Part shown: positions 434 through 61,387 of the stretch, in pieces | How positions within the stretch are numbered: the stretch's first letter is position 1 | How the letters are laid out: each line of letters begins with the position of its first letter | Source of the DNA: Blasia pusilla | Lineage: Eukaryota | Reading direction: 5' to 3' | Length of the DNA stretch: 64,000 nt | Assembly (NCBI GenBank): GCA_050084515.1 | Contig: CM114271.1 | Coordinates: forward strand, 33,728,001-33,792,000 | Translations under genes and position numbers: made by a program | Notes under the pieces: generated by a model | Told to the model about the DNA's origin: nothing | What the model saw: the letters and a program-made list of their open reading frames with translations, nothing else | Database searches by the model: none

Positions 434-1899
434 TGCGTGAGGCTAGGATGGCTACTCAGATACAACAGCTACATGAGCATATTGCCGCTATGGCATTGAG
501 GTTACGTGATGCCGGATCCGTGGCATCGACATCATATGGAGCAGCCATAGATATGGAGATCCTGGTTGGATGTGCGGGGTTGCCCAAATGGAGGCCGCCG
601 CAGTTGTGACGCGTGGAGCAGCCGTAGAGTTGGATCCACAGCGGGGGAAAGCTAGGAAATAGATCAGGCTTCCTCAATCTTTCACGTTGTCTGAGGCGAT
701 GAGGACCCCATCGATGGGTCCTGATCAGAGTTCTTGGAGAATTGGTGATGTTGTTGGTATGCAGGCATGGAGGGCGATGGGAAAAGCGAGTGTGACGACT
801 CCTATTGTTGATGCTCAGGAGGGGCATGTATCAAGCACGTTGTTGGGGGCGGCCACCATTGTGTACCGCGTTCCTTTATTTTTGCTTCCAATATTATGAC
901 ATTGGGAGGTATATCCGCCGAGGTTTTGCGGCTGGACGCTACGCTATGTGAGCGTGGAGTTGGAGTTCCTCCATCACATTCAGAGGTGATGGACCTACCC
1001 TTGGAGCGGATGCTGGGGCCGTCCACGTCAGATTCATGGCAGGTTCCGGTTGCTAGGATGGCGGAGATGCCTGCTAGACCCGCGAAGAGCGTGCCATGGT
1101 TTCTCATGGTGTTGTGTTGCTGGATAACCGGGGAGAGGTCTTCCAATTGGTGAGTCCCGAAGATAGAGCTTTTAGTCCGCAACGCGTCTTGTTGGATTCA
1201 GGAGTGCAACCCCTGATGTTGGGGAAAGCGTCATTCAGAGGATTGGGCATGATAAGAGCCGATGTAGAGAGTTGTCCATTCCGGATATAGACATCCTTGG
1301 GTGGAGTGAGTACCACATAGTATATCACGCGACAAGAGGTCATGGTGAGGATTCGCCCGGGACACCCTACAAATGAGTCTGTGATGCAAGGCAAGGCGAT
1401 AGTGATTGATGTAGAGTCCTACGACATCTTGGTTGGTGGAGCAGTGTTGTACCCGATGGGGTTTTCCTTGGATTACTGGGAGGAATCAACGTCCTATAGA
1501 CCAGGATGGCAGTCAGGTGATGGGCGCCTTAGCTCATTACCCGTTCGATTCACAAGTGCAATGATGGAGCGACGGCCAGGAGAGATGGCGACCTTAGCAG
1601 CATTTAGCAGTGCCATCACTCATCACAATGATTTGATTGAGGGACATATCCATGTAGAGGATACTCCCGTTCTTGACATTTCTATGCAGAGGAGTGTCAT
1701 GGTAGCCGCATCAGTCCGTGGATGAGAGGTGCAGCTTTGGGGCTCGATTGAGGAGCTTCGATGCTTAGCCATTGAGCATGTGCAAACCACGTGGAGCGAA
1801 ACGTTTGCACCAGAGTGTGAAGGGTCAGAGGAACCCCAAGTAGGCAGGAGTGCTGCTATGATCCTTTTGGACACCACCCCGATTTTGTGGTGCATCCTA

Positions 1900-4150
1900 G
1901 AGAAGGATATTCGGGTGTTGGATCTCTTTGGAGGGATCAGCACTGGGTTAGCTATTGTTTTGCACAATGCGCGTGCAGTAGTACCTGTACGTGGAGATTG
2001 ATGATGTTGTGAGACACACTTCACTTCACCATGTGGCGCTGTTACACCTCCATTTTCTTGACTTGTTGTCTGCATCCGCCATTCAGGGTTACGAGGATTC
2101 CCTACCGAGGGACATTTCATTGTTGGGGGCGCAGGACTTGGAGCGGGTAGGGACCATAGACTTGGTCATTGCTGGTTGGCCGTGTCAGGGCCAATTGAGT
2201 GCTAGATGAGATAGTGGATTAGCTAACACTCGGTCCAGGTTATTTTGGGAGATGATGCGGATCTTGCGATATTTACAAGAGCATCAATCTTGTTCTCCAG
2301 CATATATTTTGGAGAATGTGCCAATTTTGGGCGATTCGAGGTCCCACGTGGTGACGAGTGCACATCAGGTGCGCGCATGGATTGGGCGAGCAGTGTTGTT
2401 AGATGCGGTGTTGTATTGAGAGCCTTTCTTCGAGTAAGGACGGGCCTTCTAGCTACGGTAGACGTGATCGATGCAAGGTGAACTCTCTAAGAAGTTCTCC
2501 TTTTTCAATACAAAATTTTTATGTATACTCTCCATTCTCTCACGACAGGTATCACAAATGGAACTACCGAGGCGATCATTTCTTCGTAACATCGGACCCT
2601 GAAATTCCTAACTATAAAATCCCTATAAACTACTTTACGCTTGTACACGAGGAAGATAGCACAACTAGTGTTAAACCCTACTTGAGCAGACCTATTGACA
2701 TCCATGGATGGTTATATAAGGACATACAAAGTACAATCCCATGTCCTTCCATATGTGACGATAGGAAGAATCATTGGAGTTGGAGATTGCATGACCTGGT
2801 TCATGAACGTCTCCCAAAAGTGATAAACTAAATTGCGAGTGAACTAGTTTCTATGTACAAAGAGCACCTTGACATGATAAGGATTGAGGAAAGGAAAGTT
2901 GGGCATAACTCGTGCTCCATCCCAATCCATGCTTGACAAAAATTCTCTACTCTCCTCAAGAATGGGTTTTGGCAGAATTATTCTCCCAAGAGGGGTAATC
3001 CACTCTCATTGGGACAGTAACAAGCCAAAATATTCATTATTTTAGTATGACTAAACTCTTCTAAGCTGAAAAGCCTCTCATCTCCACACACACACCCCAC
3101 TCTAGAAACCTCTTGAACAATAGACCATGGTCGAGTTACTCTCCCAAGAGGGGTGATCCACTCTCATTGGAAGAACAAGCAATCCCAAAGCCATACACTC
3201 AAGAGTGACACGAGAGACTCAAGATGTGGAATAGAAGATGATGAATCCTTGAAGGTCCCTCATCTTTATATACTCACGAGGGATCCACAAGAGTAAGAAA
3301 TAGAGCTAATCTTATCTTATGCCACATGGCTTCCTCTCAAGGCTTAGCCAATCACATTTTGACACAAGTAGATTTCCTCTTATATCTCCCAAAATATCCT
3401 CTTTTATCCACTTGATATTTTCCAAATTACTCCAACTATTCTAGCCACCAACCAAGACTACTTTTTCTTTCCATTAAAGCACCAACCTCACTACTTTACT
3501 TTTATAAAGTCATCTTTTATTTCTTACCTATTTTCCTGAAGTTGGGCCCGCATAAAAGAGGCATCATAAAGAGGCTTAAACATGGGAATTTCCTTTTCAT
3601 AAGCTAATTTACTTAATACTAATAAAACTCTATCTAACACTTAATGAAGAAGGAGTTTATACACTGGCTGATTTTACTATACAACAACGGCGAGTGTGGG
3701 TTCACGAGCACATCGCCCGCATCTTTGGTGGACCAGCTTGGTACCACATGAGGTACCAAGTTATGAGTACCAAGGTATTGCGGAGGCCTAATGCAAGAGT
3801 GGAGTGTCCCTCCGATTTGTTGGTGGATTCTATATTGGATCTAGACAGTCAATCACAGGTAGTGAGGCATAATGATCGACCGTCGTTGACTATGATCAAC
3901 AGGATTGGCATGCCACGAGCCGCCTTTCCCACATTGGTGAGTTTTCCCGCTTCCTATGCATTCAAGGAGGCCGGACCTGACTTGGTTTGGGATGACCAGG
4001 TATAGAGGTTGGTGGAGCCCAACGCCGATGAGTGAGAGCGAGCGATGGGATTCCCAACAGGAGTGACGGCAGTATCGTCACTATCGGAGGCATCACGACG
4101 TCATGTCTTGGATGAGACGATGGACCTGAACTGCTTGACATGGATTTTCA
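1900..4150 (+). pseudogene. DNMT3-like C5 cytosine DNA methyltransferase domain inside Gypsy pol, interrupted by a solo LTR
   Basis: Motif I IRVLDLFGGISTGL (1909-), motif IV IDLVIAGWPCQG (PCQ 2180-2188), RLFWEMMRIL, motif VI YILENV (2312-2320), motif VIII LLDAASVGSRAHRPHLWW (rejoined across 2408/3691), motifs IX-X ERAMGFPTGVTAVSSLSEASRRHVL (4036-4110). Confidence 0.92.
2409..3686 (-). mobile_element. Solo LTR (~1.28 kb) inserted into the methyltransferase domain
   Basis: Termini TGTTGTA...TACAACA; flanks GCGG/ACGG (4-bp TSD with one transition). Removing it restores the MTase frame. Internal ~32-bp direct repeat at ~2980 and ~3140. TATA-like TATATAAAG on the minus strand at ~3265, so orientation is tentative. 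Confidence 0.85.
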
Positions 4151-7100
4151 GCTTAGGAGTAGCTAAGCAAAGTCATTTGAGGATGCAACAGATCACAGTT
4201 GTTCCGTTGTTGAGCCCCATGCCTACCGAGGCGGTTGAGGCAATGGCTGGGGGCGAGACCCGAGGAGATCGACACACTAGGGATGATCGGGAGAGACACC
4301 CTTGGACTTCTTGGGATGTTTTGCAGATACGCTAGGAGATGATAGCCACAGCATCGAGTGTGGTTCCGGGTACTGCACGTGGAGATGAGAGTTCTATTTT
4401 CCGAGATAGGGTTGCACCATAGCAACTACCGACACGCGTGCCGGAGAGTCCTACCATAGTCACGATGGAGACTTGGGAGCCAGATATGGGCCCTAAGTTG
4501 ACAAGAGGAGAGCGGCGCCAGATACACCAGTTCCTTATGAGTTATAGGAGTTGTTTTGCATATAGTATGCATGATTTGGGTATGTTGAAGGGTCCAAGGA
4601 TCCGCATTGAGTTGTCGAGTGACACGCCAATATTTTGACGAACCTACAGGTACACTGACATAAAGAGGGCTATGATTCAAAGTATGAGCCAGGACTTGGT
4701 TGGAGCAGATTAGTGGAGATGTCGCATGGAGAGTATCCATCTTCCACTGTCATGCCTGCCAAGAAGGATGTACATGGCAACTGGACGAATAGGCGGATAT
4801 GTGGAGATTACCGACCTATCAACCGGCAGACGAAGTCTGATAGGTATGCCATGCCCACCCCTGAGGAGATCTTTGATGCGATTGGGCATGCAAAGATCTT
4901 TAGTTCATTGGATTTGTGAGCCGGATACCATCAGCTGCCTATCAGATTGGAGGACAGGCAGAAGATGGCATTTTGGGGCATCAATCCTCACGGGAAGGAT
5001 TGTTTGTACCAGTGGTAGTTCTTACCATTCAGGTTAAAGAATGCCCCGGTTGAGTTTTAGAGGGTCATGGATAGGATCTTGGCAGGTCTAGATTTTGCTA
5101 GGTGTTATATTGATGACATTGTAGTCTTTAGCACCATGGTTGAGCAGCATGAGCGACATCTAGAGGAGGTGTTTCGACGATTGCAGTTACATGGAATGAA
5201 GCTACATCGAGGCAAGTGCAAGTTCTTCTATGACCAGATTGAGTACTTGGGTCATACGATATACCCTAGGGCCCTTGGTATGCAATAGACAAAGATAGAG
5301 GCTATTTCACGCATTCCATGCCTTATTGATGTGAGTCGAGTTCATGCATTCATGGGATTGGCAAACTTCTATCAACGTTATGTCAAGGGTTTCAGTTCGA
5401 TTGCAAAGCTAACCTTGATGACCAAGGTGGATAAGGAGTGGCACTGGGGGGATGAGCAAGAGAGATCATTTCAAATGCTCAAGGACAGATTGATGTCCGC
5501 GCCCATATTGAGGAGACCGATCAAGGGGCGTCCTTTCCAATTGCATACCGATTGGAGCATGTTGGGGCTTGGAGCCGTCCTCACCCATCATGACAATGAT
5601 GGTAGAGAGTTCGTGGTGGCTTATGCTAGTCGCTCGAACAATGCTGCAGAGGCGAAGTATAGCTCGTATGAGGGTGAGTGCTTGGCTGTAGTGATGGCTG
5701 TCGCACATTTCAGATGTTATCTATTCGGCAATCCCTTTACCATCATTACTCATCATTAGCCACTTAAGTGGTTGATGGAGTCCGAAAAGCTTACAGGGAA
5801 GCTTGCAAGGTGGGCTCTTTTGTTGCAGGAGTATGAATTCGAGGGGTTGCATAGCTCTGGGACGTTCAACCAGGATGCAGATGGTTTGAGCCGTAACCCA
5901 TGTAGCGTTGCCAGCACTGTGGGTGCTAGAGAGCGTGATCCGATCCTATATCAAGCCAGACGGTTCCGGTGGGAGGACACACATGTATTGCAAGTGTGGG
6001 AGGATGGTAGAGTGCATGTAGTGCCTCATCCTTCGCAAAGAGCACGTTTGGTGCGTCATGCCCACGAGGAGTTGGATCATTTTGGAGTGAAGCAGACATG
6101 CAGTTTGCTCTAGATTCAGTATTGGTGGCGAGGCATGCAGACTAACCTTCAGTAGTTTGTTGCTAGATGAATGATGTGTGATCGAGTCCGAGCATCGTTC
6201 AATGCTCCAACTCCACAATTGCATCCACTTCCGATCATGGGTTTAGATTATAGATGGAGTTTGGATTTTGCAGGATCTTTGCCTTTGACGGAGCACCATA
6301 GTCATTATGTGTTGGTGATGGTCGAGCACTCCTCGAAGTGGATAGAGTTGGTTGCATTGCCTAAAAAAGCGAGTGAGGGAATAGCGTATGCCTTCCTAGA
6401 TCGAGTTTTGAGTCATTACGGCACACTAGTTGAGGAGTGGATAGACTAGGGTACAGAGTTCCGCAGGGAGTTTCAGGCCTTGTGTGATCACGCACTCATC
6501 GACCACCGCACTACTTCGCGAGATCATCCTGAGGCGGATGGACTAGCCGAGCGGGTTGTGCAAACGGTGAAGAGAGGACTACGCAAGTATGGCTTGCACA
6601 GAGGTTACCTAGGAGATTGGGACCTTCAGTTGCCCTGGTTGGAGATGCGATACAGATTCAGCAAGCAAGCATCCTTAGCATCTTTTTCACCGTACTTGCT
6701 ACTTTATAGTTGAGAGCCAGATTTACCAACGGCCATTCGTCAAGATACTGGTGAGGTGTTGAACCTTCATAACCCTGATGTATGGATGCAATCATGTTCT
6801 CAGAGGGCTGAGTTTTTTTGGAGAGTGATGCCCATGGCGTTTGAGAACTTGGAAATTGCGCAACATCGGGATACGTTGAGGTATGCGACTATTCAAGGAG
6901 GTGGTTATCAACCTACTATCTGGAGGTTTCATCAAGGAGACTATGTCTACTTGCAACAGACGGCACCTACGATGTTGGATGTGACTCCAGGGCACACCAT
7001 ATTGAGAGTACGTGAGGTTTGTCATCCGGTGTTCTCTTATTGGAGGGACCCGATGGTATGGTTTGGAAGGACCATATGCGTAATTGTGCGCCATATCATC

Positions 7101-7460
7101 TTCCGAACATTGACGGTAAGTTGATCCGAGCTTAGCAATAGTTCTTGCATGCTTGCGGTGTATGTTGCGTGGTTCCGCCCATGGTGGAGCCACTATGCTA
7201 GTCCGTGATGGGTGTTTTGAGAGGATGGCATATGGCATGTTTGACGCCACATCTCACTAATGTTCCTCAAGGACGATGGATGTGTCCCATATGTACATAG
7301 AGTAGGTAGTTCTACATTCCGACTTGTGTCTGTAACATGGATGACAAGAAGGCGACTAACGATGGGGTCACATGAGCACCCAACCTTCTTGCTCTTAGCG
7401 TCCGAGAGATGTATGTCATGGTAGGTAGGGATAGATGGCTACCTGGAGTTAGGGGGCCAT

Positions 7461-8229
7461 TGGAGATATTTTGGTACTTCTTGTCTCATTTTTTGGATGC
7501 CATGAGTTAGCATGGGATTTTCTGTGTTTGTGTGTGTGTTTGGTGACAGCGATGTATGTTGTGTAGCAATGTGTATGCGCACGATAATTATTCTCGTCTT
7601 TTAGGATAGATTGGTGAGATCTGGTAGATTCTTTTATGAGTAGTGGAGGACAGGCTCAGTAGGTCGAGGATGACCTGCTGAAACCCTAAATGTTAGAGAG
7701 CAGGTTTTCCCTTCGTTTCAGCTCATTTGGAGCCATATTGAGGAACTTACTATTTTAGGTAAGTATCATTTTGAATATATGATCAACTTGATATTTTTGG
7801 TAAGTGGCCCTTGACCTCCTACATTAGGTCAAGAGCCAAGGAGGTGACTTGGGAGCATAGGTTACCGTGGAGAGAGCTTGGGAGAGGGAAGAGGTATACC
7901 TCAAGGAGAGAGAGCTTGAAAACTCATTCTCTCTTTGTTGAACCTCTTGGCATGAGGCGGTAGAACTATGGTCTTGCTTGCCTTGTGTGTGTAACCCAAG
8001 CCTCTCATTAGGAGATTGGGTTTGGTTTGACATTGAGAGAGAAATGTGAGAGTGCACACATGTGAGAACTATGGTGTTGTGAGAGAGATTGGATTTATTT
8101 TATTGGAGATATTTTCGTACTTCTTGTCTCGTTGTTTGGATGCTATGAGTTAGCATGGGATCATGCATGTTTGTGTGTGTGTTCGGTGACAGCGATGTAT
8201 GTTGTGTACCGATGTGTATGCGCACAACA
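7461..8229 (+). repeat. 3' terminal A-B-A repeat block of copy 1 (A 7461-7586, B ~7589-8103, A 8104-8229)
   Basis: A ~126-bp unit TGGAGATATTTT...GCGCAC(G/A)A(T/C)A occurs twice, flanking a ~515-bp B unit homologous to 18795-19313 and 27927-28443 (reverse strand). Confidence 0.9.
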
Positions 8230-9986: not shown

Positions 9987-12555
9987 TCAAATATCAAGAT
10001 TTTAGTTTTTCTTTGGTAAAGATTAATCCCTCAACAAGTGTAAGAAATCGTGAAACAAAATTATGTTTAGGTTATTATTATAGGATGAGCCTTCAACTTT
10101 GCAAAGACTCCTCCACATACACAAGAGAAGAGTCTTGAAGATATGTGTGATAATTTATGACCCCCACATTATTTTCATCTCTTAACATCTTTCATCATCA
10201 AAGAAGGAGAATACATTTGAGCATGGATATTGTCAAATTTTCATCCATCCACAATTTCTTAGAATATTTTATTTTATGATGAAATTTTAGAAACTCTCCT
10301 CATAACTTGATTATGCCCTTCTCAAAATAATAAGAATGGTATCTCGCTTATAGCGTAGAGCATCTCCATTTCACAAAGGAGATTTTTCTTAGAAGGAAAC
10401 AACCTTTTATTTTCCATAAGATAAATTTTTGTTTTTCAAATTGCATCCATTAATTTTTCCATCTCTTCTTGAATATGATAGTTTTATGTTGTTCAAGAAT
10501 AATTTAAAGTAAATGATACATACAATAACTAAACTCAAGGAAATTAAATTGAATCTTCGAATCAGGAGACGTTAATTTAGAGAAAATTACAAATGTAACT
10601 TGGGATAAAGGAAAGGAAGAAATTGGGAAACAATTCATTACAATATTTACATTAAAAAAATATCTTCCAAAACTAAAATTAAAGTGAAGAAGAAGGAAAA
10701 AGGACCACTAAAGGGAAGGATTTAAAGTGAAAAAAATGCTAAATTAAAAGATATAAACATAACGTTATAGAAAACAAAGAATGAATTACTAAAAAGGAGA
10801 AGGGATTTTTCAAGGAAAATAAATGCATTAATTCTAATTTATTCCATAAGAATAAAGAATAATTGTAAGATATTGGAAGCTTCCTTGTAAGCTTGAAAGA
10901 CCATCAACCACAAAGTTGGGAGAAAGAAAATAGGGAAATGCCAAAAAATTAGGATCATCTAAAGATGAAAGGAACAATTCAAAAAATATTAATGAGATAG
11001 GAGCTCATAGGTGAACTATAGGGAATTCCCAAGGTTGCATAGGCCAAACGGAAATGTCCATGGACATCATCATGTTGTGTCAACACCGCATCCAAGGAAT
11101 CACATATCATGAGCCAAACCCACTTATGTGGGAGAATAGTGTGCTAGTAGAGGAACCACCATAGCCAAGAGCTCTACTCACTAGAGAGGTTAACTTCATA
11201 CATAGGGTTGAAAGGGTTAACTCTGTTCTTTGAGGGTGACTTTTCCACAATATGTCCTCTAAGGTTAGAGGACATATTGTGAAAAGTCACTCAACCGAGT
11301 TAGTTCCGTTGAACCCTATGTATGAAAGTTAACCTCTGGTAGTAGTAGAGCTCTTGGCTATGGTGGCCTCTACTAGCACACTATTCTCCCATAATGGAGT
11401 GGGTTTGGCTCCATTATATGTGATTCCTTGGAGCGGTGTTGACACAACATGATGATGCATGTCCATGGAGTTTGTGGTGGCCTATGCAACCTTGGGAATT
11501 CCCCTACTAACCTTCGCTCCTATCTCATTAATATTTTTTGAATCGAATTCCTTTCATCTTTAGATGATCCTAATTTTTTTATTTCCCTATTTTCTTTCTC
11601 CCAACTTTCAGGGTATATTTGTCTTTCCTTAACCGTCCTTCCAATACCTTCAATTATTCTTTATTCTTATGGAATAAATTAGAATTAATGCATTTATTTT
11701 CCTTGAAAAATCCCTTCTCCTTTTTAGTAATTCATTCTTTGTTTTCTATAACGTTATGTTTATATCTTTTAATTTAGCATTTTTTTCACTTTAAATCCTT
11801 CCCTTTAGTGGTCCTTTTTCCTTCTTCTTCACTTTAATTTTAGTTTTGGAAGATATTTTTTTAATGTAAATATTGTAATGAACATCTTCCTCTAGTTTAG
11901 ATTCCTTTCCTTTATCCTAAGGTTGGAGATTTGTAATTTTCTCTAAATTAATGATGATTCAAGATTCAATTTAATTTCCTTGGAGTTTAGGTTATTGTAT
12001 GTAGTGCCATTTAGCTTTAAATTGTTCTTCAACAACAAAAACTATCATATTCAAGAAGAGATATAAAATTAATGGATGGAGGATTTGAAAACAAAAATTT
12101 ATCTTTGGAAAATAAAAGGTTGTTTCGACATGCCTAAGAAAATGGGACATTTTGGGGAAATGGAGATGCTTACTCCTGGTAAGCGATTGATACCATTCTT
12201 ATTATTTTGAGAAGGTGGTGTCATGTTGTATGGTTTATGAGGAGAGTTTCTAAAATTTCATCATAAAATAAAATATTCTAAGAAATTGTGGATGGATGAA
12301 AATTTGACAATATCCATGCTCAAATGTATTCTCCCTTCTTTCACAAGAGAAAGATGTTAAGAGATGAAAATAATGTGGGGGTCATAAATTATCACACATA
12401 TCTTCAAGACTCTTCTCTTGTGTATGTGGAGGAGTCTTTGCAAAGTTGAAGGCTCATCCTATAATAATAACCTAAACATAATTTTGTTTCACGATTTCTT
12501 ACACTTGTTGAGGGATTAATCTTTACCAAAGAAAAACTAAAATCTTGATATTTGA
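9987..12555. repeat. Long inverted repeat (arms 9987-11262 and 11265-12555, 2-nt spacer)
   Basis: Outer ends TCAAATATCAAGATTTTAG / CTAAAATCTTGATATTTGA are exact reverse complements. Centre is ACAATATGTCCTCTAA-GG-TTAGAGGACATATTGT. Long perfect blocks alternate with clusters of small indels. Confidence 0.95.
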
Positions 12556-14091
12556 GACCATCTAGAGGCGGGATGGTTTGGCTGAGCGTGTGGTTCAGAC
12601 GGTGAAGAGGGCATTGCGCAAGTATGGCCTACAGAAGGGGCATCTTGGAGACTGGGATATTTAGTTGCCATGGTTAGCCATGGGGTATAGGTTCAGTTGC
12701 CAAGCATCCTTGGCTTCCTTCTCACCTTATTTTTTGTTATACGGCCCAGATCCAGACTAACCAACAGCAATTCGTTGGGAGTCTAGTGAGGTGGTAAACC
12801 TTGATGACCTAGAGATGTGGATGAGAGTGTGTTCTCAGCGGGCAGAGCTCTTTCGGAGAGTTGTGCCAACAGCCTTTGAGAATCTTGCCATTGCTCAACA
12901 CAAGGATACGTTGCGGTATGCAACCATTCGGGGTGGAGGTTATCGACCATCGATTTGTAGGTTCCATGTGGGGGACTATGTCTATTTGCAGCAGATTGCA
13001 CCGACAATGTTGGATGTGACGGCAGGCCACACTATTTTATAAGTGCGCAAAGTGTTAGCTTCTGGAGTTCTCATGTTAGAGGGTCGTGATGGAGTTGTTT
13101 GGAAGGACCATGTGCGTAATCGTGCGCCATGTCATCTTCCAAATTTGGATGGTACTATTGACTCAAGCTTAGCCATGATACGTGCTAGCTTGAGGTGCAT
13201 GTTGTGTGGGTCTGCTGGTAACGCAGCCCGTATGTTGGTGTGTGATTGTTGTTCTAAGGGTTGGCACATGGTGTGTTTGACTCCACGTATGGATGTTGTT
13301 CCTACTGGAAGGTGGGTTTGTCCTTGATGTACTTAGGAGAGGTAGATGACTTGATCTTTGCATGATATGGATTACAGATGTGCGACTTACGATAGGGCAT
13401 CCTAGCACCCGGCCTTCTGATTCGTGCACCCAAGAAGGTGTATAGCATGTAGTAGATGTATAGGGCTACCTGGGAGTTAGAGGGACCTAACCGCCAGTTA
13501 GGGGGGCGAGTTGTGGTACACTTGTGTTTGTGTATGCTCTCGTCTATGTTATGTATGTATGTGAGTATGGTATGTCAGCGATGTATGTTGTATTACGATG
13601 TGGATTCGCACGACAGTTGTCATGACCATACGGATTATGTCGTAGAGTATAGTGTGCTAGTAGAGGCCATACCTTATGTAGGGCCGTAGTGTCCAAGTAG
13701 AGATGCGGTTTCATACATAGGGTTGGGGGTTACTCAGTTGAGGATGACTTTTCCAGTAGGGCCCGCTCTTAGGTTGGAGGATATAGTGTGGAGTGCACTC
13801 AAAGAACAGATAGTTCTTTGAGTTGAGCCTGTTGCGTTGGGATTTAGCCTTGGTAGTGAGTAGAGCTCTTGGCTATGGTGGTTCCCGCAAGCTTCGACGT
13901 GGATTCTCCCATCGTGGAGTGGGTTTGGCTCGATTGTATGTGATTCTATACGTGTTTTATGACAGTAGGTCTTTCACGGATTTCAATTGTGGTACACTTG
14001 TGTTTGTGTATGCTCTCGTCTATGTTATGTATGTATGTGAGTATGGTATGTCAGCGATGTATGTTGTATGACGATGTGGATTCGCACGACA
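12556..14091 (+). mobile_element. 3' fragment of a related Gypsy subfamily (copy 3): integrase C-half, PHD finger, PPT, A'-B'-A' repeats
   Basis: LAERVVQTVKRALRKYG...SPYFLLYG; PHD CMLC-x-CDCC-GWH-xxC-x-WVCP*C (13190-13330); PPT AGGGGGGCGAG (13500-13510). The 104-bp A' unit occurs at 13512-13615 and 13988-14091 with one mismatch. Confidence 0.92.
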
Positions 14092-18677: not shown

Positions 18678-19441
18678 TGTCGTGCGCATACACATCGCTA
18701 CACAACATACATCGTTGTCGCCAAACATACACACAAACACGCACGATCCCACGCTAACTCATGGTGTCCAACAATGAGACAAGAATATCTCCAATAAATC
18801 AAGTAGATCCAATCTCTCTCAACACCATAGCTCTCAAATGTGTGCACTCTCACATGTCTCTCTCAATGTCAAACCAAACCCACTCTCCTAATGAGAGGCT
18901 TGGGTTATACTCACAAGTCAAGCAAGACCATAGCTCCACCGCCTCATGCCAAGAGGTTCAACAAAGAGAGAATGAGCTCTCAAACTCTCTCTCTTGGAGG
19001 TATACCCCATTCCCTCTCCCAAGCTCTCTCCTCGGTAATCTATGTTCGTAGGTCACCTCCTTGGCTCTTGACCTACTATAGTAGGTCGAAGGCCACTTCC
19101 CAAAGTGGAAAGTCAACTCTGCCAAATATGGAAACTTGCCCAAAATAGTAATTTTCTCGATATGGCTCCAAATGAGGCGAAACGAAGGGGAAACTTGCTC
19201 TCTCAGGTTTCCCGGGACTTGAGCAGGTCATCCTTGACCTCCTAAGTCTGTCCTCCTCTACTCGCAAAGGTGCTCTACCACATCTCTTTGATCTATCCTA
19301 AAAATTTGTGACAACAATCGTATGCATACACATCGCTACACAACATATATCGTTGCCGCCAAACATCCACACAAACACGCACGATCCCATGCTAACTCAT
19401 GGTATCCAAACAACGAGACAAGAAGTACCAAAATATCTCCA
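18678..19441 (-). repeat. 3' terminal A-B-A block of copy 2 (A1 19441-19316, B2 19313-18795, A2 18793-18678)
   Basis: Direct duplication of CACATCGCTACACAACATA...ATATCTCCA on either side of B. Confidence 0.92.
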
Positions 19442-22400
19442 ATCGGCCCCCTAGCTAGTGGTTAGGTCCCTCTAACTCCAGATAGCCATCTATCCTTACC
19501 TACCATGACATACATCTCTCGGACGCTAAGAGCAAAAAGGTCGGGTGCTCCATCGTTAGTCGCCGTCTTGTCATCCATCTCACAGATACAAGTCGGAATC
19601 TAGAACTATGTACTCTATGTACATATGGGACACATCCATCGTCCCTGAGGAACCTTAGTGAGAGGTGGCGTCACACATGCCATATGCCACCCTCTTAAAC
19701 ACCCATCACAGACTAGCATAGTGTGGCTGCACCACCGACGGAACCACACAACATACATCGCAAGCCTGCAGAAACTACTGCTAAGCCCAGATCAACAATA
19801 CCGTTAATGTTAGGAAGGTGACATGACGCACAGTTACGCACATGGTCCTTCCAAACCATACCATCGTGTCCCTCCAATAAGAGAACACCAGATGACAAAA
19901 TCTCACGCCTCTCCAGATGGTGCGCCCTGCAGTTACATCCAATGTTGTGGATACCGTATGCTGCAAGTAGACATAGTCTCCCTGATGAAACCTCCGGATA
20001 GTAGGTCGATAACCACCTCCTCGAATAGTCGCATACCTCAATCTATCCCGATGTTGTGCAATCGCCAAGTTCTTAAACGCCATGGGCATCACTCTCCGAA
20101 ACAACTCAGCCCTCTGAGAACATGCTTGCATCCATACATCAGGGTCATCAAGCTTCAACACCTCACCAACATCTTGACCAAGGGCCATAGGTAAATGTGG
20201 CTCTCGGCCATAAAGCAACAAGTACGGTGAGAAAAATGCTAAGGATGCCTCCCTGCTGAATCTGTATCCCATCGCCAACCATGGAAACTGAAGGTCTCGA
20301 TCTCCTAGGTGACCTCTCTGCAAGCCATACTTGCGTAATCCTCTCTTCACCGTCTGCACAACCCTCTCTGCTAGTCCATCCGCCTCAAGATAATCTCGCG
20401 AAGTGGTGCGATGGTCGATCAGCGCCTGATCCCACAAGGCCTAAAACTCCCCGTAAAACTCTATACCCTAGTCTATCAACACCTCAGCTGGTGCGCCGTA
20501 ATAACTCAGCAGTCAATCTAGGAAGGCATATGCAACTCCATCATTCGCTTTGTCAGACAATGCAACCAACTCTATCCACTTTGAGAAATGCTTGACCATC
20601 ATCAACACATAACGACTATGGCACTCTGTCAAAGGCAAAGGTCCTACAAAATCCAAACTCCATCTATAACCTACACCCATGATAGGAAGTGGATGCAACT
20701 GTGGAGTCGGTGTATTGAACGATGCTTAGACTCGATCACACACCGTGCACGTGGCAACAAACTGTTGAACGTTAGTCTGCATGCCTCGCCACCAATATTG
20801 TATCTGGAGCAAGTTGTACATCCGCTTCACTCCAAAATGACCCAACTCTTCATGGGCATGACACACCAAAACGAAGGATGAGGCACTACATGCACTCTAC
20901 CATCCTCCCAAACTCGCAACACATATGTCCTCTCCCATCGAAACCGTCTGGCTCACTGTAGGATCCGATCCCGCTCTCTAGCACCCACTATGCTTCGCGA
21001 TGCTGCCAGTACATAGGTACTCCAAGACCACTCCATCGTCGTGAATATCTTGGCCACCTGTCGTCTCCTCACTAGCGTCTTGATCTAAGGACTCTCCATC
21101 ATACCTCGCCATCGAAGTCTCAGCAATCTGGCTTTCTATAGCCAACAAGCCCAAATAGGCTGACGCATGCCATCCTGGCATCAACTTCTCATCACTCTCA
21201 CCATGCCAACGAGCTCCAATCGCATCTCAGTGACTGGGGGGCATGGATTACGGCTCAAACCATCTGCATCCTGGTTGAGCGTCTCAGGTCTATGCACCAC
21301 CTGGAAGTCATACTCATGCAACAAAAGAGCCCATCTTGCAAGCTTTCCTATAAGCTTGTCGGACTCCATCAACCACTTGAGTGGCTGATGATCAGCAATG
21401 ATGGTAAAGGGGTTTCCAAATAAATAACACCTGAAATGTGCGACAGTCCACATCGTAGTCAAGCACTCACCCTCATACGAGCTATACTTTGCCTCTATAA
21501 CATTGTTTGAGCAACTAGCGTAAGCCACCACCAACTCTCTACCATCATCGTCATGTTGGGTGAGCACGACTCCAAGCCCCAACATGCTCCAATCGGTATG
21601 CAATTGGAAAGGACGCCCCCTGATCGGTCTCCTCAATATGGGCGTGGACATCAATCTGTCCTTGAGCAATTGAAATGCTCTCTCTTGCTCATCCCCCCAG
21701 TGCCACTCCTAATCCACCTTGGTCAGCAAGGTTAGCGGCTTTGCAATTGGACAGAAACCCTTGACGTACCATTGATAGAAGTTCGCCAATCCCATGAATG
21801 CACGAACTCAACTCACATCTATAGGGCGTGGAATGCGTAAAAGAGCCTCTACCTTTATCGACTGCACACCAAGGCCACTTGGGTATATCGTATGACCCAA
21901 GTACTCAATCTGGTCATAGAAGAACTTGCACTTGCCTGGATGTAGCTTCAGCCCATGTAACTGCAATCGTCAAAACACCTCCTCTAGATGTCGCTCATGC
22001 TTCTCAACCGTGGCGCTAAAGACTACAATGTCATCAATATAATACGTAGCAAAACCCAGACCTGCCAAGATCCTATCCATGACCCTTTGAAATTGAGTCG
22101 GGGCATTCCTTAACTCAAATGTAAGAACCGCCACTAGTACAAACAATCCTTCACATGAGGATCAATGCCCCAAATTTCCGTCTTCTGCCTGTCCTCCAAT
22201 TTGATAGGCAGTTGGTTGTATCCGGCTCACAAATCCAATGAAGTGAAGACCTTTGCATGCCCAATCGCATCAAAGATCTCCTCACGGGTAGGCATGGCAT
22301 ACCTATCAGACTTCGTATGTCGATTGATAGGTCGGTAACCTCCACACATTCGCCTATCCGTCCAATTTCCATACACATCCTTCTTGGTGGGCATGAAAGT

Positions 22401-23029
22401 GGTAGATGCATTCTCTCCATGCGACATCTCTACTAGTCCTACTCCAACCAAGTCCTGGCTCCTACTCTAAATCAGAGCCCTCTCCATGTCACTGAATCTG
22501 TAGGGTCGTCGGAAGATTGGCGTGTCACTTGACAACTCAATGCGGATCCCTAGACCCTTCAGCGTACCCAAATCCTGCATGCTAGATGCAAAACAGCTCC
22601 TATAACTCCTCAGGAACTAATGAATCTGGCGCCGCCTCCTATTGTCAACTTAGGGCCCATGTGTGGCTTCCAACTCTCCATCATGACTATGGTAGGACTC
22701 TCCGGACGTGGGTGTAGGTGGTTGCTATGGTGCAACCCGGTCTCGAACAATAGACCTCGACTGCTCTCCTACAGCCACCTCCAAAATCTGATCTCCATGT
22801 GCAGTCTCCAAAACCACGCTCAATGTTGTGGCTACCATCTCTTGGCATACTTGCAAAAAATCCCAAGAAGTCCAAGGGTGTCTCTCTCAATCACCCCTCA
22901 TGTCGTGATTTCCTTGGGTCTTGCCCCCAGCCACTGCCTCAACCGTCTTGGTAGGCATGGGGCTCACCAACGCAACAATTGTGATCTGTCGCATCTCAAA
23001 CAATGTTGCTCAACTACTCCTAAGCTGAA

Positions 23030-23280
23030 AATCTATGTCAAGTACTTTAGGTCCATCACCTGACCCAAGACATGACGTCGTGATACCTCTGATAGTAGCA
23101 ACGTGGAGATGAGAGTTCTATTATCCGATTGCTCCCATCCCACATGGTGAAGTGAAGCACACCTCGTACCATCATCAATCTCCACATACAAGTACTGCTG
23201 CACATGTATTCCTGCCTGCAAAACAGTAGCTAACCTAGTGTTGATCCCTCCAAAGAGATCCAACACCCGAATACCCCCCT
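23030..23280 (-). pseudogene. Internally deleted DNMT3-like domain of copy 2
   Basis: IRVLDLFGGINTRLATVLQAGIHVQQYLYVEIDD is joined by a short filler to LSEVSRRHVLGQVMDL. Motifs IV-IX are missing. Confidence 0.88.
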
Positions 23281-26200
23281 CTGGGATGCGCCATACAATC
23301 GGTGTGGTATCCAAGGGCATCATCATAGCACTCTTAGCAACCTCGGGTTCCTCTCACCCGTCACGCTCTGGTTCAAACGTCTCACTCCATGCCATTTGCA
23401 ATTGCTCAGTGGCTAAGTGTCGAAGCTCCTCAGTCAAGCCCCAAAGCAGCACCTCTCTTCCACGGACTAATGCGGCAACCATGACACTCCTCTCCATAGA
23501 AATGTCAGGAACGGAAGTGTCCTTTGCATGGATATGTCCCTCAATCAAATCACTAGGCCAAGTGATGGCGTTGCTAAATGTTGCTAAGGTCGCCATCTCT
23601 CCTGGCCGTCGCTTGATCACTGCACATATGAATCAAATGGGTAATGAAAAAGGGCATCCACCACCAAACTACCATCCTGGTCTGTAGGACGCTGCCTCCT
23701 CCCATTAATCCGGAAGACCCCATCGGGTACAACACTGCTCCACCAACCAAGACGTCGTAGGACTCTCCATCAGTCACTATTGCCTTGGCTTGCACCACGG
23801 ACTCATTTGTACGATGTCTCGGGCGAATCCTCACCGTGACCTCATGTCGGGTGATATTCTTTGTGGTACTCATTCCACCCAAGGATGTCTCTATCCAGAA
23901 TGGACAACGCTCCATATCGGCCCTTGTCAGGCCTAAACCTCTGAATGCCGCTTTCCCCAACATCAAGGGTTGTGCTCTTGAATCCAACAAGATGTCGTGC
24001 GGACTAAAAGCTCTACCTCCTGGACTCACCAACTAGGAAGACCTCTCCCCGATCATCCAGCAAAAAAATACCAAGAGAAGCCATGGCATGGTCTATCGCG
24101 GGTCTAGCGGGCATCTCCGCCATCCTAGCAACCGCAACCTACCATGAATCTGACGTGGACGGCCCAAGCATCAGCTCCAAGGGCACGTCTATCACCTCCT
24201 TTGAAATCACCTGTGAACGTGATGCAGGAACTTCAACTCCACGCTCACATAGCGTAGCGGCCAGCCGGAAAACCTAGGCGGGAGTACCTCCTAACCTCAT
24301 AACATAGGAAGCAAAAAATAAAGGAGCGCGGTACACAATAGTGGCCGCCTCCAACAACGTGCTCGACACGTGCTTCTCCTGAGCATCAGCAATAGGAGTA
24401 GTCACACTCGCTTCTCCCATCACCCTCTATGCGTGCACACCAATAACATCACCAACTCTCCGAGAACTCTGATCAGGATCCATTGATGGGGTCCTCATTG
24501 CCTCGGACAACGTGAAGGACTGAGAAAGCCTGGTTTGTTTCTTGGCTTCTCCTCGCTATGGATCCTACTGTGTGTCTGCTCCACGTGTAACAACTACGAT
24601 GACCTCCATCTAGGCAACCCCGCACATCCAAATCCATATCTCTGGCATCTCCATAAGACGTCGATGCCACGGATTCGGCATTGGGTAACCTCAATGCCAT
24701 AGCGGCAATTTGCTGCTCTAGCTACTAGATCTGAGCAGCCATCCCAGCCTCACATCCGGCATCTCCTTGGACGCGTCTAGGTGGTGGGACTCTACCTCCT
24801 CCTCCTCCTCCATGGGCAACTCCACCACCCCCTCGGGAAAATCCAATTCCTCGTCCCCCAACGAGACCACCTAGTGCCCGGCCTCTAGGGCCACTTGGAC
24901 CGGAAACTCACTCCAATGCCCTCTCTGGCCCCCGGTCCAGATATAACCCAGGGTGCAAGCTGAAACACCTAGCGCATGTGTGACCGTACCTCTGACAATA
25001 GTCACACTGATAACCTCCTGGTGCAGCACTATCTCCTCTTCCATGTTGAGGCACACGACCATGACCCTGACGAGTGCAATCGCGCTGATGATGGACTCCA
25101 CCACATGACCAACAAGTAATCGCAGGCAGATGCTGTTGAGCTGCATATGAAGGCGCAGGTTTTTGTGGCACGGCCTCCCGATATCCTCCCTGAGCTCGTG
25201 GTGCCACAAACCTATCTTGGAATCCACATTGCTGCATTGGTAGTGTAGGAAATCGTGACTGCTCTTGCCTAGAACCCATGGTCGCTACGGTCTCCTCCGC
25301 CATGTTGCGCTCAATGTTCTCGGCGGTCCTATAAACATCTCTCAACGTAGGGGAGCTGTTCAAAAGAAGCACCCCCTCCCGCACACGTGTCCGCACGGTC
25401 TCTTCCGGCATTGCGTACCATGACTGGATACCGTGAGCGTCTGTTGCCCCCTGAGTGACGTTAATCAACCGGGTGTAGGCCTCACGCAAACTCTCACTTG
25501 GGCGCCTCCGGAAGTCGTGGATGCTCCACAACTTCTCAGTCCGTATCTCCTGGTAGCTCGCCCTCAACTTAGCAAAGAACTCAACCACGGGGTTGAACCT
25601 TGGACAAACTCGACTGGACGATACAATTGCTCCAGTGCGAGTCACCCCTCTTACAACATCATTGGTGGAGGAACCCTCTCCTGATTCCTCCTCCTCATCT
25701 GGAAACGGCTCTGTCCATGACACATAGTGTGGGTCATAGTAGAGTCTCCAGACCTCAATCTTATGGGCATATTTCTACAAGAACTCATGGTAATCGTCCA
25801 TGGGTGCCCCCTCTAATTGCTGGAACATTCTGTTCCATGCTGTAAACGGGTTGAACTCTCTGGAGTTCCTTGCCCGCCGTGAGTCGCACCAACTCCTAAA
25901 CTCCGCAATGAAGTCGTATAACTCTATAGTGCCTATAGCACCCGAAAACCTACGCGGTCCTCTACCACGGTCGTCCATCTCGTACGCCCAACTGGTAGGA
26001 TCACTCAATGTGTGCGGTGGAACACTAGCACACTCCTCTACACTCTCCCCCTTGTCTGAAGATGACACAGTAAGAGATTGAGGTGGTCTCTCACGTGGAG
26101 ACTCTCAAAACCTCGCACCACTCCAAATAAACCCTCTAGAGCTACTCTCAAGTCCACCACCTTGCCTCTCAAAGTCCTGAAAGGACGCCCTGATGATCCT

Positions 26201-27926
26201 CGTGCAGCCCTCACACGATCACTCTCAACCTCACGAGTAATCACTCAAGCACTCAACTAAATAGGCGGCACTCAATCCACACTCTCTCACTAAGACGTAT
26301 GATGTGCGGCAACAAGCGGCGTGGTGCGGCAAATCGTCTACTGTCCTATCATCTCATCGACAGGACACACCCTCAACTCTGGATATCCCACACAGGTCTA
26401 TGTCCCCTAACCCACATACATAAATGATGCTTGCAGCATTTGCACGAAACCTAATATCCCGAATAACTGTCCAAATCCCATAATTCCCTAACACGTGCAA
26501 GGTAAGAGACCAAAATGGGTAACCTGACAATAATGTCGATGTTGCTCTTCAGCAACTGAAAATCTTGAACTCAAGTTGGTCATAAAGACAACTCCTCCAA
26601 ATAGCACGTCGTACTCCCTTGGTACTGATGATGCTCAAATCTTCTCGATGTGCGGTGTAGGTCCTACGGTCCGGTGGGGCACTAGCGGCACGAAACGGCT
26701 ACAAACGGCACGACACTCAAGAATGAGGTGCGGCACTCGGCGGCATAACCTCCTTAGTAAAAAAAACACAATCTGCTCCTAGTGATGGTGCGGCTCCGCA
26801 ATTGAGACGGTGCCGTGCGGCCACTAACGGCACGGCGCGGCAATCGGCGGCGCGTTGCGGCTACGGGCGTCACGGCACGGTACTCGATCTTCGTCGAACG
26901 GCTACAAATCACGGCATAACAAAGTAGACGGAACACTACAACCCCATCAATCCAAAAATGCAAATGGCCGGCCGCGAACACAGGCAGCCGCGGCGGTGTG
27001 GGATAGAGATTCAGACGCCCAGCTCTACGGGCGGCTGTAACCCAGGGTGGGACAGAGGAGCGCACGGCTGTACGACGGCTCAGTATTTTTTCAGAAATAG
27101 AAGGTGGAAGGAAAGAAGTTGTTCCCCGCAAAATTTTACTTTTATTTTTATTTTTTTTAACTAGAATAACCATCAAGAAATTTGGATCTCCACTGTCTTC
27201 CTTACTTGACAACCCCCCTCCTGACAGGTCTGCAAATTGAATGCCTTACCACAAATCCCTCCTAAGATTGAGGATCAACATCCCAAAAAATGGGATCTAT
27301 TCATCCTACCTCCAAATAGCTGAAGTCCCCTGTCCTAACCACCAAGTAAACTCATTTTTTTTTCTACCTCTCAAGAAAGAATTTCTACCCAAAAATTTCG
27401 AAATTTCACTCACACCTTGGAACGGTGGCTATGGCAGCCCACAAAAACTGTTGTAACTTCACGCTCACACAATGAAAATGCACATTGTTTCTTCCACAGC
27501 GTGCACAACTTTCCGATATACGACCTCATCAAATTGGTTTCTCCATTTGATCTTCCGATAAAAGTAGACTGGGACTGTCGTGCAACCCATTGTCTCTTTC
27601 TCCTACGCAAAATTCGGCAAGGCTTCTGCGCTGATTTCTCCCAAAGAAAATGTAAAACTTATGAAAATACAAATCAGCAAGCTACATGGTGCTCCCAAGA
27701 GCACTGGAATGGGGCAACCCACCCCCATACTCAATCCCTATCAAAAATTAGGCAACGCTTCCGCGCTTCACTCTTCCACACGAAAAATTGGCAAAAGAAA
27801 CATCAAAAGTAAGCGGCTCTTGCTCCGGTGAGCACTGAACAAGGAATACAATCCCCAACATGAAAAACCAGCGAGTGACCAGAAAGCTCCCCCATGAAGC
27901 TCTCTCACTCACTCATTCTCTCTTTG

Positions 27927-28443
27927 TAAATCAAGTAGATCCAATCTCTCTCAACACCATAGCTCTCAAATGTGTGCACTCTCACATGTCTCTCAATGTC
28001 AAACCAAACCCACTCTTCTAATGAGAGGCTTGGGTTACACTCACAAGGCAAACAAGACCATAGCTCCGCCGCTTCATGCCAAGAGGTTCAACAAAGAGAG
28101 AATGAGCTCTCAAGCTCTCTCTCTTGGGGGTATACCCCCTTCCCTCTCCTAAGCTCTCTCCTCGGTAACCTATGCTCGCAGGTCACCTCCTTGGCTCTTG
28201 ACCTACTATAGCGGGTCAAGGGCCACTTCCCAAAGTGGAAATTCAACTCTACCAAACATGGAAAATTGCCCAAAATAGTAAGTTTCTCGATATGACTCCA
28301 AATGAGCCGAAACGAAGGGGAAACATGCTCTCTGAGATTTACCAAGACCTCAGCAGATCATCCTCAACCTCTTGAGCTTGTCCTCCTCTACTCGCGAAGG
28401 CGCTCTACCAGATCTCTCCAATCTATCCTAAAAAGTCGTGAGA
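27927..28443 (-). repeat. 5' terminal repeat B1 of copy 2 (B only, no A)
   Basis: Colinear with 18795-19313. Homology stops where A begins in the 3' block. No TGG-type PBS follows it. Confidence 0.9.
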
Positions 28444-61135: not shown

Positions 61136-61387
61136 TCTTCTCCTCATTCAATATGACAACTTCCACATATGTTGTTACTATGCGTGGCACCGGATATTTT
61201 TATGTGCATCAACATATCTGACATACGGTGGTTAACTTTTGATTATAGGCGAGTGTTTGAGGACATTCCAATCATTCTTTGCTTGTGGCATGTACGACAC
61301 GAGTGGCACAAGCACTTGCGTATATAGGTGTGACCGTGTTAAACGATATGAGCTAAGCACTACGTTAGGAAAGATAATGCAAATAAA

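Follow-up and report, generated by a model that had tools for sequence, protein, structure and literature searches.

Retrotransposons that carry a C5 cytosine methyltransferase have been published only for dinoflagellates and for one charophyte, and the charophyte case has been taken as lineage-specific. As described by de Mendoza et al. (2018; PMC5890265), the charophyte element, KnitGypsy-Dnmt3 of Klebsormidium nitens, has an intron-less, non-rearranged Dnmt3 domain in a Gypsy-type polyprotein, and the legend to Fig. 4 of that article calls its repeats 'the same as that of a DIRS retrotransposon', its domains being Gypsy-like. A 2026 preprint cites 'streptophytes (Gypsy-DNMT3)'. Here we describe an element of this kind in 64,000 nucleotides of Blasia pusilla DNA (assembly GCA_050084515.1, contig CM114271.1, positions 33,728,001 to 33,792,000 of the forward strand). 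This whole stretch is called the window, and coordinates are positions in it, with the strand given as (+) or (-). At 437-8225 (+) it very probably holds a dead, 5'-truncated copy of a Gypsy-DNMT3 element, from a family in which Gag, protease (PR) and methyltransferase (DNMT) are followed by a conserved stop, then by reverse transcriptase (RT), RNase H (RH) and a DDE integrase (INT), with split repeats and 4-bp target duplications.

The methyltransferase domain of this copy, copy 1, is interrupted by frame breaks and by an insertion. Its N-terminal half (motifs I-VI) was placed at 1882-2408 (+) by reading of open reading frames (ORFs), a PF00145 match and tblastn, and its C-terminal half (motif VIII, target-recognition region, motifs IX and X) at 3691-4161 (+) by tblastn and a read-through alignment. 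Among the stop-to-stop ORFs, motif I (DLFGGISTG) was found in frame 1 at 1882-1964, followed in frame 2 (1967-2407) by YLYVEIDD, motif IV (AGWPCQG), RLFWEM and motif VI (ENV). Downstream of the insertion, motif VIII (GSRAHR..LWW) appeared in frame 3 at 3693-3755, and the target-recognition stretch with motifs IX and X (ERAMGFPTG...SRRHVLD) in frame 1 at 3778-4161. When copy 1 is read through, catalytic motifs I (FxGxG), IV (PCQ), VI (ENV), VIII and X are all present and collinear, with D replacing the family's G in motif X. Of the five methyltransferase pieces compared with PF00145 as isolated ORFs, one matched, with 16.4 bits, under the cutoff of 22. The C-terminal read-through by itself gave no Pfam match. 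Reading 1982-2419 with an X at the stop raised the PF00145 score to 37.2 bits (E 3e-9; gathering cutoff 22), and the complete read-through, with an X at each break, aligned with a Marchantia domain at 400 bits over positions 5-316 of 322. Read across its breaks, 1882-4161 (+) thus encodes an entire C5 cytosine methyltransferase domain, in which motifs I to X follow one another in the regular sequence. A sequence-only reading of the window had claimed such ordered motifs inside pol and had named PF00145 as a check; the motif order, the 400-bit alignment and the Pfam score all bear it out.

The closest relatives of this domain were sought among proteins of known structure. A single-sequence search of the PDB ranked DNMT3C, DNMT3B and DNMT3A first (E 0.004-0.02). 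A profile built from 25 family domains (profile A1) retrieved DNMT3A at 2e-27, in three collinear stretches, and DNMT3C and DNMT3B at about 1e-25 to 1e-24, followed by NtDRM of tobacco (7.5e-17), DRM2 (1.4e-13), M.HhaI (3e-9) and DNMT2 (4e-7); DNMT1 was absent from the matches of this profile at 1e-3 or better. DRM enzymes have a rearranged motif order. The DRM matches were confined to profile positions 81-208 and fell within the C-terminal portion of the enzyme's chain, which is consistent with the rearranged motifs of DRM and with an element domain that is not rearranged. DRM2 and NtDRM, the second-best PDB matches, belong to the same DNMT3 superfamily as the element but differ from it in this rearrangement. 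An AlphaFold model computed from a 9-sequence alignment was of low confidence, with a mean predicted local distance difference test score (pLDDT) of 56; all Foldseek matches listed for this low-confidence model (ranks 1-50) were DNMT3A, DNMT3B or DNMT3C chains, with a target-normalised template modelling (TM) score of up to 0.71.

Host DNMT3A, DNMT3B and DNMT3C (PDB 2qrv, 6u8p, 8tci) are thus the best matches in both sequence and fold, and their motifs I to X are collinear like those of the element. Motif VIII (GS.AHR..W) and motif X (RR..LG) of the element are both typical of DNMT3. Unlike the host enzymes, the element domain, which is about 20% identical to them, is without PWWP or ADD domains, and its VIII-IX region is longer, family-specific (PTLVS.P.S.AFR) and poorly modelled. 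The domain is therefore of the DNMT3 type, with DRM, DNMT1, DNMT2 and bacterial enzymes all more distant from it, and the DNMT3 peptides cited in the sequence-only reading agree with the DNMT3A alignment obtained with the profile. A DRM or bacterial-type enzyme was considered and rejected, because profile A1 ranks DNMT3A far ahead and the motifs are collinear.

Copy 1 was delimited by self-BLAST against a second copy in the window, by tblastn with Marchantia polyproteins and by Pfam matches to RVT_1 and RT_RNaseH. It is without 5' repeat and without gag, and its order is PR - DNMT - RT - RNase H - integrase - B1-A2-B2, the last three being repeats described below. The aspartic protease region was mapped to 1087-1668 (+) by tblastn with residues 733-934 of two relatives (P0033/P0034), which carry Pfam Asp_protease_2. 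LLDSG is present in ORF 1078-1290 of this region, and the protease-region ORFs of copy 1 themselves gave no Pfam match. RT, RNase H and integrase, with more frame breaks, occupy 4453-7124 (+), as judged from ORFs, Pfam and tblastn; rve reached 22.7 bits in copy 1, under its cutoff. The relatives and the window together provide a zf-CCHC gag, an aspartic protease, RVT_1, RNase H and an rve integrase, which identify the element, by its domains, as a long terminal repeat (LTR) retrotransposon of the Ty3/Gypsy type. Both this class and the position of a DNMT3-like domain between PR and RT had been proposed in the sequence-only reading, and the tblastn map, profile A1 and the architecture of long relatives agree with it on the second point as well.

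The same arrangement recurs in land plants and algae. In the Marchantia protein P0006, Pfam placed DNMT at 460-529, RVT at 833-919 and RNase H at 997-1098. A word-based search with a 146-residue piece yielded 40 proteins from 828 candidates. The best were 62-64% identical and came from Sphagnum troendelagicum, Calypogeia fissa and, as many 'hypothetical proteins', Marchantia polymorpha; some of the Marchantia polymorpha relatives combine RVT, RNase H and PF00145 in one protein. Searched exhaustively, 1.84 billion representatives yielded 535 matches at E <=1e-3, 100 of them at <=1e-10, and 69 of 190 collected relatives had matches to gag, PR, RT-RH or integrase probes as well. A profile search of long proteins gave 64 matches, among them KFL_013780020 of Klebsormidium nitens (P0227; E 1.3e-112), and also found Sphagnum fallax, Haematococcus, Tetraselmis and, weakly, Symbiodinium (E 6e-9). 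Cluster look-ups of the relatives added a Scenedesmus 'pol' and a Closterium protein. Two architectures stood out among the 90 proteins of at least 900 amino acids: RT-RH-DNMT-INT (27), which is the chlorophyte type and frequently includes a PHD finger, and GAG-PR-DNMT (26), which with PR-DNMT-RT variants makes up the streptophyte type, found in bryophytes, in Closterium and in Klebsormidium, whose protein has zf-CCHC, Asp protease and DNMT. In a phylogeny of 114 domains built with FastTree (322 columns, midpoint root), the window sequence was nested among Marchantia, Sphagnum and Calypogeia, and Klebsormidium fell in a separate clade.

A metagenome scan gave 128 matching stretches, of which 103 encode relatives; 80 were retained as loci L001-L080, and four of them (L004, L006, L032, L056) have the domain as a single open frame. 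Locus L032 is nearly intact, with gag(zf-CCHC)-PR, DNMT and RT-RNase H-Integrase_H2C2-rve in one frame and single stops between them; its DNMT domain scored 49 bits with PF00145. A single in-frame stop separates protease and DNMT in L032 (3192-3194) and in L056 (502-504). Because PR and DNMT share an open frame in at least seven other loci, this stop is probably a mutation and not a signal. The claim that the domain belongs to the element is upheld by its recurrence at one and the same position in Marchantia polyproteins, in the 80 related loci and in most of the host's family reads. Two metagenome proteins of 1417-1608 amino acids related to the domain, P0157 and P0167, contain PF00145 and the Dam-type PF05869 within one protein. 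They were entertained as possible host enzymes and rejected as an outgroup, as they carry both Dam and C5 methylase domains; in this they are like the dual-methylation 'EpiLTR' elements described in the 2026 preprint (10.64898/2026.05.21.726589).

These findings place the window element, by its domain order and sequence, with KnitGypsy-Dnmt3 of Klebsormidium, in a kind already described, Gypsy-DNMT3. The Klebsormidium protein P0227 has the order Gag(CCHC)-PR-DNMT and its ORF ends shortly after the domain, both as in the window family, and DIRS-like repeats with Gypsy domains are common to the two. Its domain is reported to be under purifying selection in the corresponding part of PMC5890265, as is indicated here for the window family. 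Unlike in KnitGypsy-Dnmt3, the element copy in the window is dead; the family's domain is 35-37% identical to that of Klebsormidium and lies in a separate clade. K. nitens is said in the same source to have few copies, whereas the family in the window's host, a land-plant-like genome, is very abundant. SymbioDIRS-Dnmt3 and SymbioLINE-Dnmt of dinoflagellates are, like the element, retrotransposon-borne C5 methyltransferases, but belong to other retrotransposon classes (a DIRS with tyrosine recombinase and a long interspersed nuclear element, respectively) and are far more distant than Klebsormidium.

A stop codon separates the two halves of the coding region. At 4420-4428 (+), the family-conserved stop with its context, TAG CAA CTA, stands between Gag-PR-DNMT and RT-RH-INT, the frame being the same on both sides, and it is a candidate site of programmed readthrough. 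We examined 44 such sites, from 42 loci and the two window copies. In 39 of them a stop followed by CAA (26 TAG, 13 TAA) lies upstream of the conserved RT start TWEP..GP, and the triplet after the stop and CAA is CCC in 35, CCA in two, CTC in one and CTA in one. Five sites depart from this: in L046 and L047 the stop lies at another position, L068 has a sense codon in its place, and the other two are L075 and the decayed second copy of the window. Gag-PR-DNMT proteins end just past the domain at clade-specific conserved places (Marchantia, its sister clade, the Klebsormidium clade). UAG_CAR_YYA is the type I readthrough motif of tobamoviruses such as tobacco mosaic virus (TMV) and can also act on UAA, according to the section of PMC3542737 on this motif. 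The window's TAG CAA CTA fits this tobamovirus signal, the context being a retrotransposon and not an RNA virus. We infer that RT-RH-INT would be made by leaky readthrough of the conserved stop, for which this context is a candidate signal.

In the window, the repeats of the family are split direct repeats of the form A1 ... B1-A2-B2, not two identical bounding LTRs, and this layout, whole or as its 3' part, was seen in three window copies and in five of 23 self-compared loci (L060, L039, L013, L072, L034). In copy 1 the 3' split repeats span 7459-8225 (+), with B1 at 7459-7582, A2 at 7599-8104 and B2 at 8102-8225. Copy 2 has on the (-) strand A1 at 27927-28441, B1 at 19318-19424, A2 at 18795-19311 and B2 at 18680-18785, its A1 and A2 being 90.5% identical over 517 nt. 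In L060, a purine-rich tract lies immediately 5' of B1, A is bounded by TG...CA, the start of A and the end of B form 7-bp inverted repeats, and B1 meets A2 in a perfect 16-nt palindrome made up of the element's two ends. Duplications of 4 bp flank the start of A1 and the end of B2 (AAGG in L060, TCTC in L039); window copy 2 matches at three of the four positions. No transfer RNA primer-binding site was recognised downstream of A1.

In the part of PMC4157794 that treats such repeats, the layout A1 - coding - B1-A2-B2 is that of PAT, Ngaro and VIPER, which are tyrosine-recombinase elements. The window family resembles them in repeat layout and differs in its DDE integrase, in its 7-bp terminal inverted repeats, in the 4-bp duplications of the target and in the palindromic B1/A2 junction. 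Integrase_H2C2 and rve were found with Pfam, and no recombinase family was matched. We considered the possibility of a DIRS or Ngaro element and rejected it, given the presence of rve, the lack of a recombinase match and the 4-bp target duplications. Since rve is present and no recombinase matched, we take the family to be a DDE-integrase element whose integrated form is a circular permutation of [B-A]-internal-[B-A]. The B1/A2 palindrome, at 10330-10370 in L060 and 10480-10510 in L039, resembles a closed-circle junction. This suggests that replication may pass through an intermediate that is circular or permuted.

Copy 1 itself is dead, with two frameshifts, four private stops and a 1278-bp insertion in the DNMT domain. 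The frameshifts lie near 1965 and within a small tandem duplication at about 3756-3777, and the in-frame stops at 1979-1981, 2207-2209, 4006-4008 and 4033-4035. A further private TAG stands at 4333-4335 (+), in the tail 3' of the domain, where relatives read through. DNA reads show indels against copy 1 in their majority at 557, 1085, 1967 and 4707; because two of these (1967, 4707) coincide with the methyltransferase frameshift at about 1965 and the frame change in RT at about 4707, both lesions are private to copy 1. Where copy 1 and the family majority in DNA reads differ, copy 1 has A/T for G/C at 216 + 189 sites and the reverse at 96 + 101. An excess of G-to-A and C-to-T changes is the customary decay pattern of methylated repeats. 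The family copies thus appear to be methylated and to decay like ordinary silenced transposons.

The insertion, at 2409-3686 (-), has TG...CA ends and an 8-bp inverted repeat, is unrelated to the element and is flanked by 4-bp duplications (2405-2408 and 3687-3690) that match at three of four positions. With tblastn, residues 383-549 of P0006 map to 1916-2407 and residues 551-694 to 3691-4146; since residues 549 and 551 fall on either side, the insertion is clean. DNA reads of other family copies skip it, 59 joining 2405 to 3688 and 95 joining 2382 to 3688. The inserted sequence has a high read depth of its own and RNA on the opposite strand, and reads continuing past 3686 enter sequence whose reverse complement is purine-rich, like a polypurine tract. 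It is most likely a minus-orientation solo LTR of a different, expressed family. That a solo LTR splits the domain had been stated beforehand; the clean tblastn gap, the TG...CA ends and the skipping reads confirm the split, the identity as a solo LTR being most likely.

Copy 2 is full length and decayed, and occupies 18680-28441 (-) by self-BLAST and tblastn, with gag at about 24944-25963 (-) by tblastn. Its DNMT remnant, at 23033-23353 (-), was recognised by ORF reading and has lost its core between 23096 and 23140. By self-BLAST, 437-2036 of copy 1 corresponds to 24753-23140 of copy 2 and 4080-5902 to 23096-21242, with 43 nt between the two blocks in copy 2. In ORF 23033-23353 (-), motif I and YLYVEIDD pass directly into motif X, about 720 nt covering motifs IV to IX being deleted, and the fragment gave no PF00145 match. 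The sequence-only reading had the same domain at the same position in copy 2; this stands for the ends of the domain, which are at the same place with collinear flanks, and fails for the catalytic core IV-IX, which is deleted.

We then turned to the family as a whole. Ratios of nonsynonymous to synonymous substitution rates (dN/dS), computed by NG86 on the DNMT domain, were low between deep lineages, at 0.25 for L032 against L006 (417 codons, dS 1.47) and 0.235 for L032 against L004. They were 0.23-0.245 for L056 against L006 and L004, where dS is about 2.5 and saturated, and 0.77 for L006 against L004, which are 90% identical. Among the 114 domains, PCQ is retained in 80, ENV in 84 and GS.AHR in 96. 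These values point to long-term purifying selection on the domain at the family level. To gauge abundance in the host, raw reads labelled with the window's species, roughly one read in 100 from a single whole-genome shotgun run, were matched to copy 1 in 30 bins at 85% likeness. DNA depth was 790-2634 per bin, with 2145-2634 in the RT and integrase bins and 2239 in the protease bin. The DNMT bins had 790 (1841-2074), 1352 (2075-2308) and 1953 (3947-4180), and the bins of the catalytic core stood at 34-58% of the RT-bin depth. The sequence-only reading had named as a refutation that most copies lack the domain or carry it out of frame with pol; with the core at this depth, and the domain in frame with PR and RT in intact relatives, its claim is not refuted. 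RNA covered all 30 bins in each of three runs, with 10- to 50-fold more on the sense orientation. Because only 3-7 reads per run are at least 99% alike, this RNA comes from copies other than copy 1. The family is very abundant and sense-transcribed in the host. An RNA-only joint at 4582-5654 omits 1071 nt of RT/RNase H, with four other letters between its sides; it was supported by 38 reads over the three RNA runs and by no DNA read, and its ends are not GT..AG. This joint could stem from a deleted, highly expressed family copy or from a processed transcript.

What the enzyme does for the element can be proposed in outline. Leaky readthrough would yield RT-RH-INT, so that the methyltransferase would be the last domain of the abundant upstream product; it would be made at Gag-like abundance, freed by the protease and present in the particle. 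It could methylate de novo the element's new cDNA, or act on fresh insertions, and new copies would enter the genome already bearing the host's heterochromatin mark. Cleavage from the polyprotein, packaging and methylation of cDNA or of the target site had been put forward in the sequence-only reading too. Such premarking would limit harm to the host and let the family reach a high copy number. Methylation of cDNA, self-recognition and self-limitation are discussed by de Mendoza et al. (in the relevant part of PMC5890265). The role that we favour is methylation of cDNA or fresh insertions of the element by the enzyme that it encodes, because the catalytic motifs are kept, the domain is under purifying selection and it is placed upstream of a putatively leaky stop, and we put it forward tentatively, as a role that may well prove otherwise. 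The window copy itself is incapable of it.

Several observations weigh against this picture as a whole or in part. The Klebsormidium domain produced no methylation in yeast, a result from which its authors drew no conclusion because DNMT3B failed there as well (assays as given in PMC5890265). Most of the 80 sampled loci are decayed, given the four open domain frames, and the catalytic-core depth in the host may indicate either many core-deleted copies like copy 2 or greater divergence. The dS values are saturated (1.5-2.6), which makes dN/dS rough, and pairs with the window copy are undefined. At most loci the stop is followed by CAA CCC, which fits only five of the six motif positions. The structure model has the low mean pLDDT given above, the tree has no host DNMT3 outgroup, and the call of RNA as sense assumes the usual stranded-library convention.

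Other explanations were weighed on the same evidence. The domain may have been kept without being catalytic on DNA, as a binding or targeting module that might, for instance, tether particles or integrase to methylated or DNMT3-bound heterochromatin, or as an RNA-acting enzyme. The silence of KnitGypsy-Dnmt3 in yeast would fit this, as would the chlorophyte-type relatives, in which the domain and a PHD finger stand beside the integrase in what looks like a chromatin-reading arrangement. Yet the retention of PCQ, ENV and GS.AHR in most of the 114 domains and a dN/dS of about 0.24 speak for catalysis, and the related SymbioDIRS-Dnmt3 domains methylated CG in yeast (as stated in the same portion of PMC5890265), so that we consider a non-catalytic role unlikely. 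Action in trans on the host genome, perturbing or saturating host silencing, was the last option of the sequence-only reading. It would suit a family that is very abundant and transcribed and, if readthrough is inefficient, a domain produced at Gag-level abundance; an effect of this sort in Symbiodinium is considered by de Mendoza et al. The K. nitens methylome, however, is reported in PMC5890265, where it is touched upon, to be plant-like despite the elements, and the excess of G-to-A and C-to-T changes suggests that family copies are methylated and decay like silenced transposons, which leaves a trans role quite improbable. De novo methylation of the element's own DNA thus remains our preferred reading of the role.

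Two further alternatives concern origin. The domain could be a piece of a host gene, DNMT3 or DRM, that happens to lie among nested transposons, since repeats are nested in one another throughout this region and the reading frame is broken many times. This we rejected, and regard as having a negligible chance, since the order PR-DNMT-RT recurs in Marchantia polyproteins, in Klebsormidium and in the 80 metagenome loci, the flanks of copy 2 are collinear, family reads cover the domain, and the motifs are collinear and not rearranged as in DRM. Land-plant elements could also have captured DNMT3 independently of those of Klebsormidium and chlorophytes. The two architectures, PR-DNMT-RT and RT-RH-DNMT-INT, and the position of Klebsormidium outside the bryophyte clade in the midpoint-rooted tree are compatible with such convergence, and de Mendoza et al. 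stress recurrent acquisition in their account (PMC5890265). Against it, full-length domains match the family profile at E <=1e-100, the value for DNMT3A being 2e-27, and the Klebsormidium and bryophyte types share Gag-PR-DNMT, the ORF end past the domain and split repeats; we judge independent capture somewhat unlikely. A broader picture is that Gypsy-DNMT3 would be more than a peculiarity of Klebsormidium: an ancient green-plant lineage that still ranks with the most abundant and transcribed retrotransposon families of at least one land plant. It would make its enzyme at Gag level, upstream of a TMV-like leaky stop, and would integrate by a DDE integrase a circularly permuted DNA (A1...B1-A2-B2) in which the two ends are joined at the palindromic B1/A2 junction. 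Taken together, these points make a possible but doubtful whole.

The rest of the window contains other repeats and a host gene. A third fragment, at 12554-14091 (+), belongs to a related family (about 71% identical) and consists of the 3' end of an integrase followed by B1 (13511-13615), A2 (13616-13986) and B2 (13987-14091), without a DNMT part; its B1 and B2 are 99% identical. Directly upstream of it, 9987-12555 contains three inverted-repeat pairs, each 100% identical (9987-10193/12349-12555, 10206-10305/12235-12334 and 10634-10865/11651-11882), a block that represents a foldback element or else an artefact of the assembly. Two directly repeated stretches of about 320 nt, 86% identical and from a different repeat family, occur at 115-435, adjoining the truncated 5' end of copy 1, and at 61385-61692, towards the end of the window. 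A multi-exon host gene for COP9 signalosome subunit 2 lies between transposon copies at about 32090-37380 (-). One of its exons is 72-96% identical to its 120 best matches, of which all species-named ones are land plants (lycophytes, conifers and angiosperms included), with no bryophyte name among them. By this gene the host is land-plant-like. Long ORFs of 294, 134 and 129 amino acids at 38778-41518 (-) look like a non-LTR retrotransposon or another repeat.

Our search of the openly accessible literature found no paper on land-plant Gypsy-DNMT3 beyond the main text of PMC5890265 and the 2026 preprint. The sequence-only reading knew of no characterised land-plant family. It was right in that no describing paper was found; the kind itself is known, and land-plant members sit unannotated in public protein sets of Marchantia, Sphagnum and Calypogeia. 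What is new with respect to the literature searched is the wide green distribution, the abundance and transcription in the host, the conserved readthrough-type stop and the 4-bp duplications around split repeats. The same kind of element is now seen in liverworts, mosses, a zygnematophyte and chlorophytes.

Cytosine methylation is the chief weapon of hosts against transposons, and a transposon that carries a de novo methylation enzyme reverses this usual picture of host defence. The conserved stop upstream of RT predicts the stoichiometry of the enzyme. The benefit of the enzyme to the element and its effect on host methylomes become testable in plants such as Marchantia, as does the replication of a DDE-integrase element with split repeats. 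Should the enzyme prove active, a material share of the methylation of heterochromatin in early-diverging land plants could come from de novo methylation encoded by transposons.

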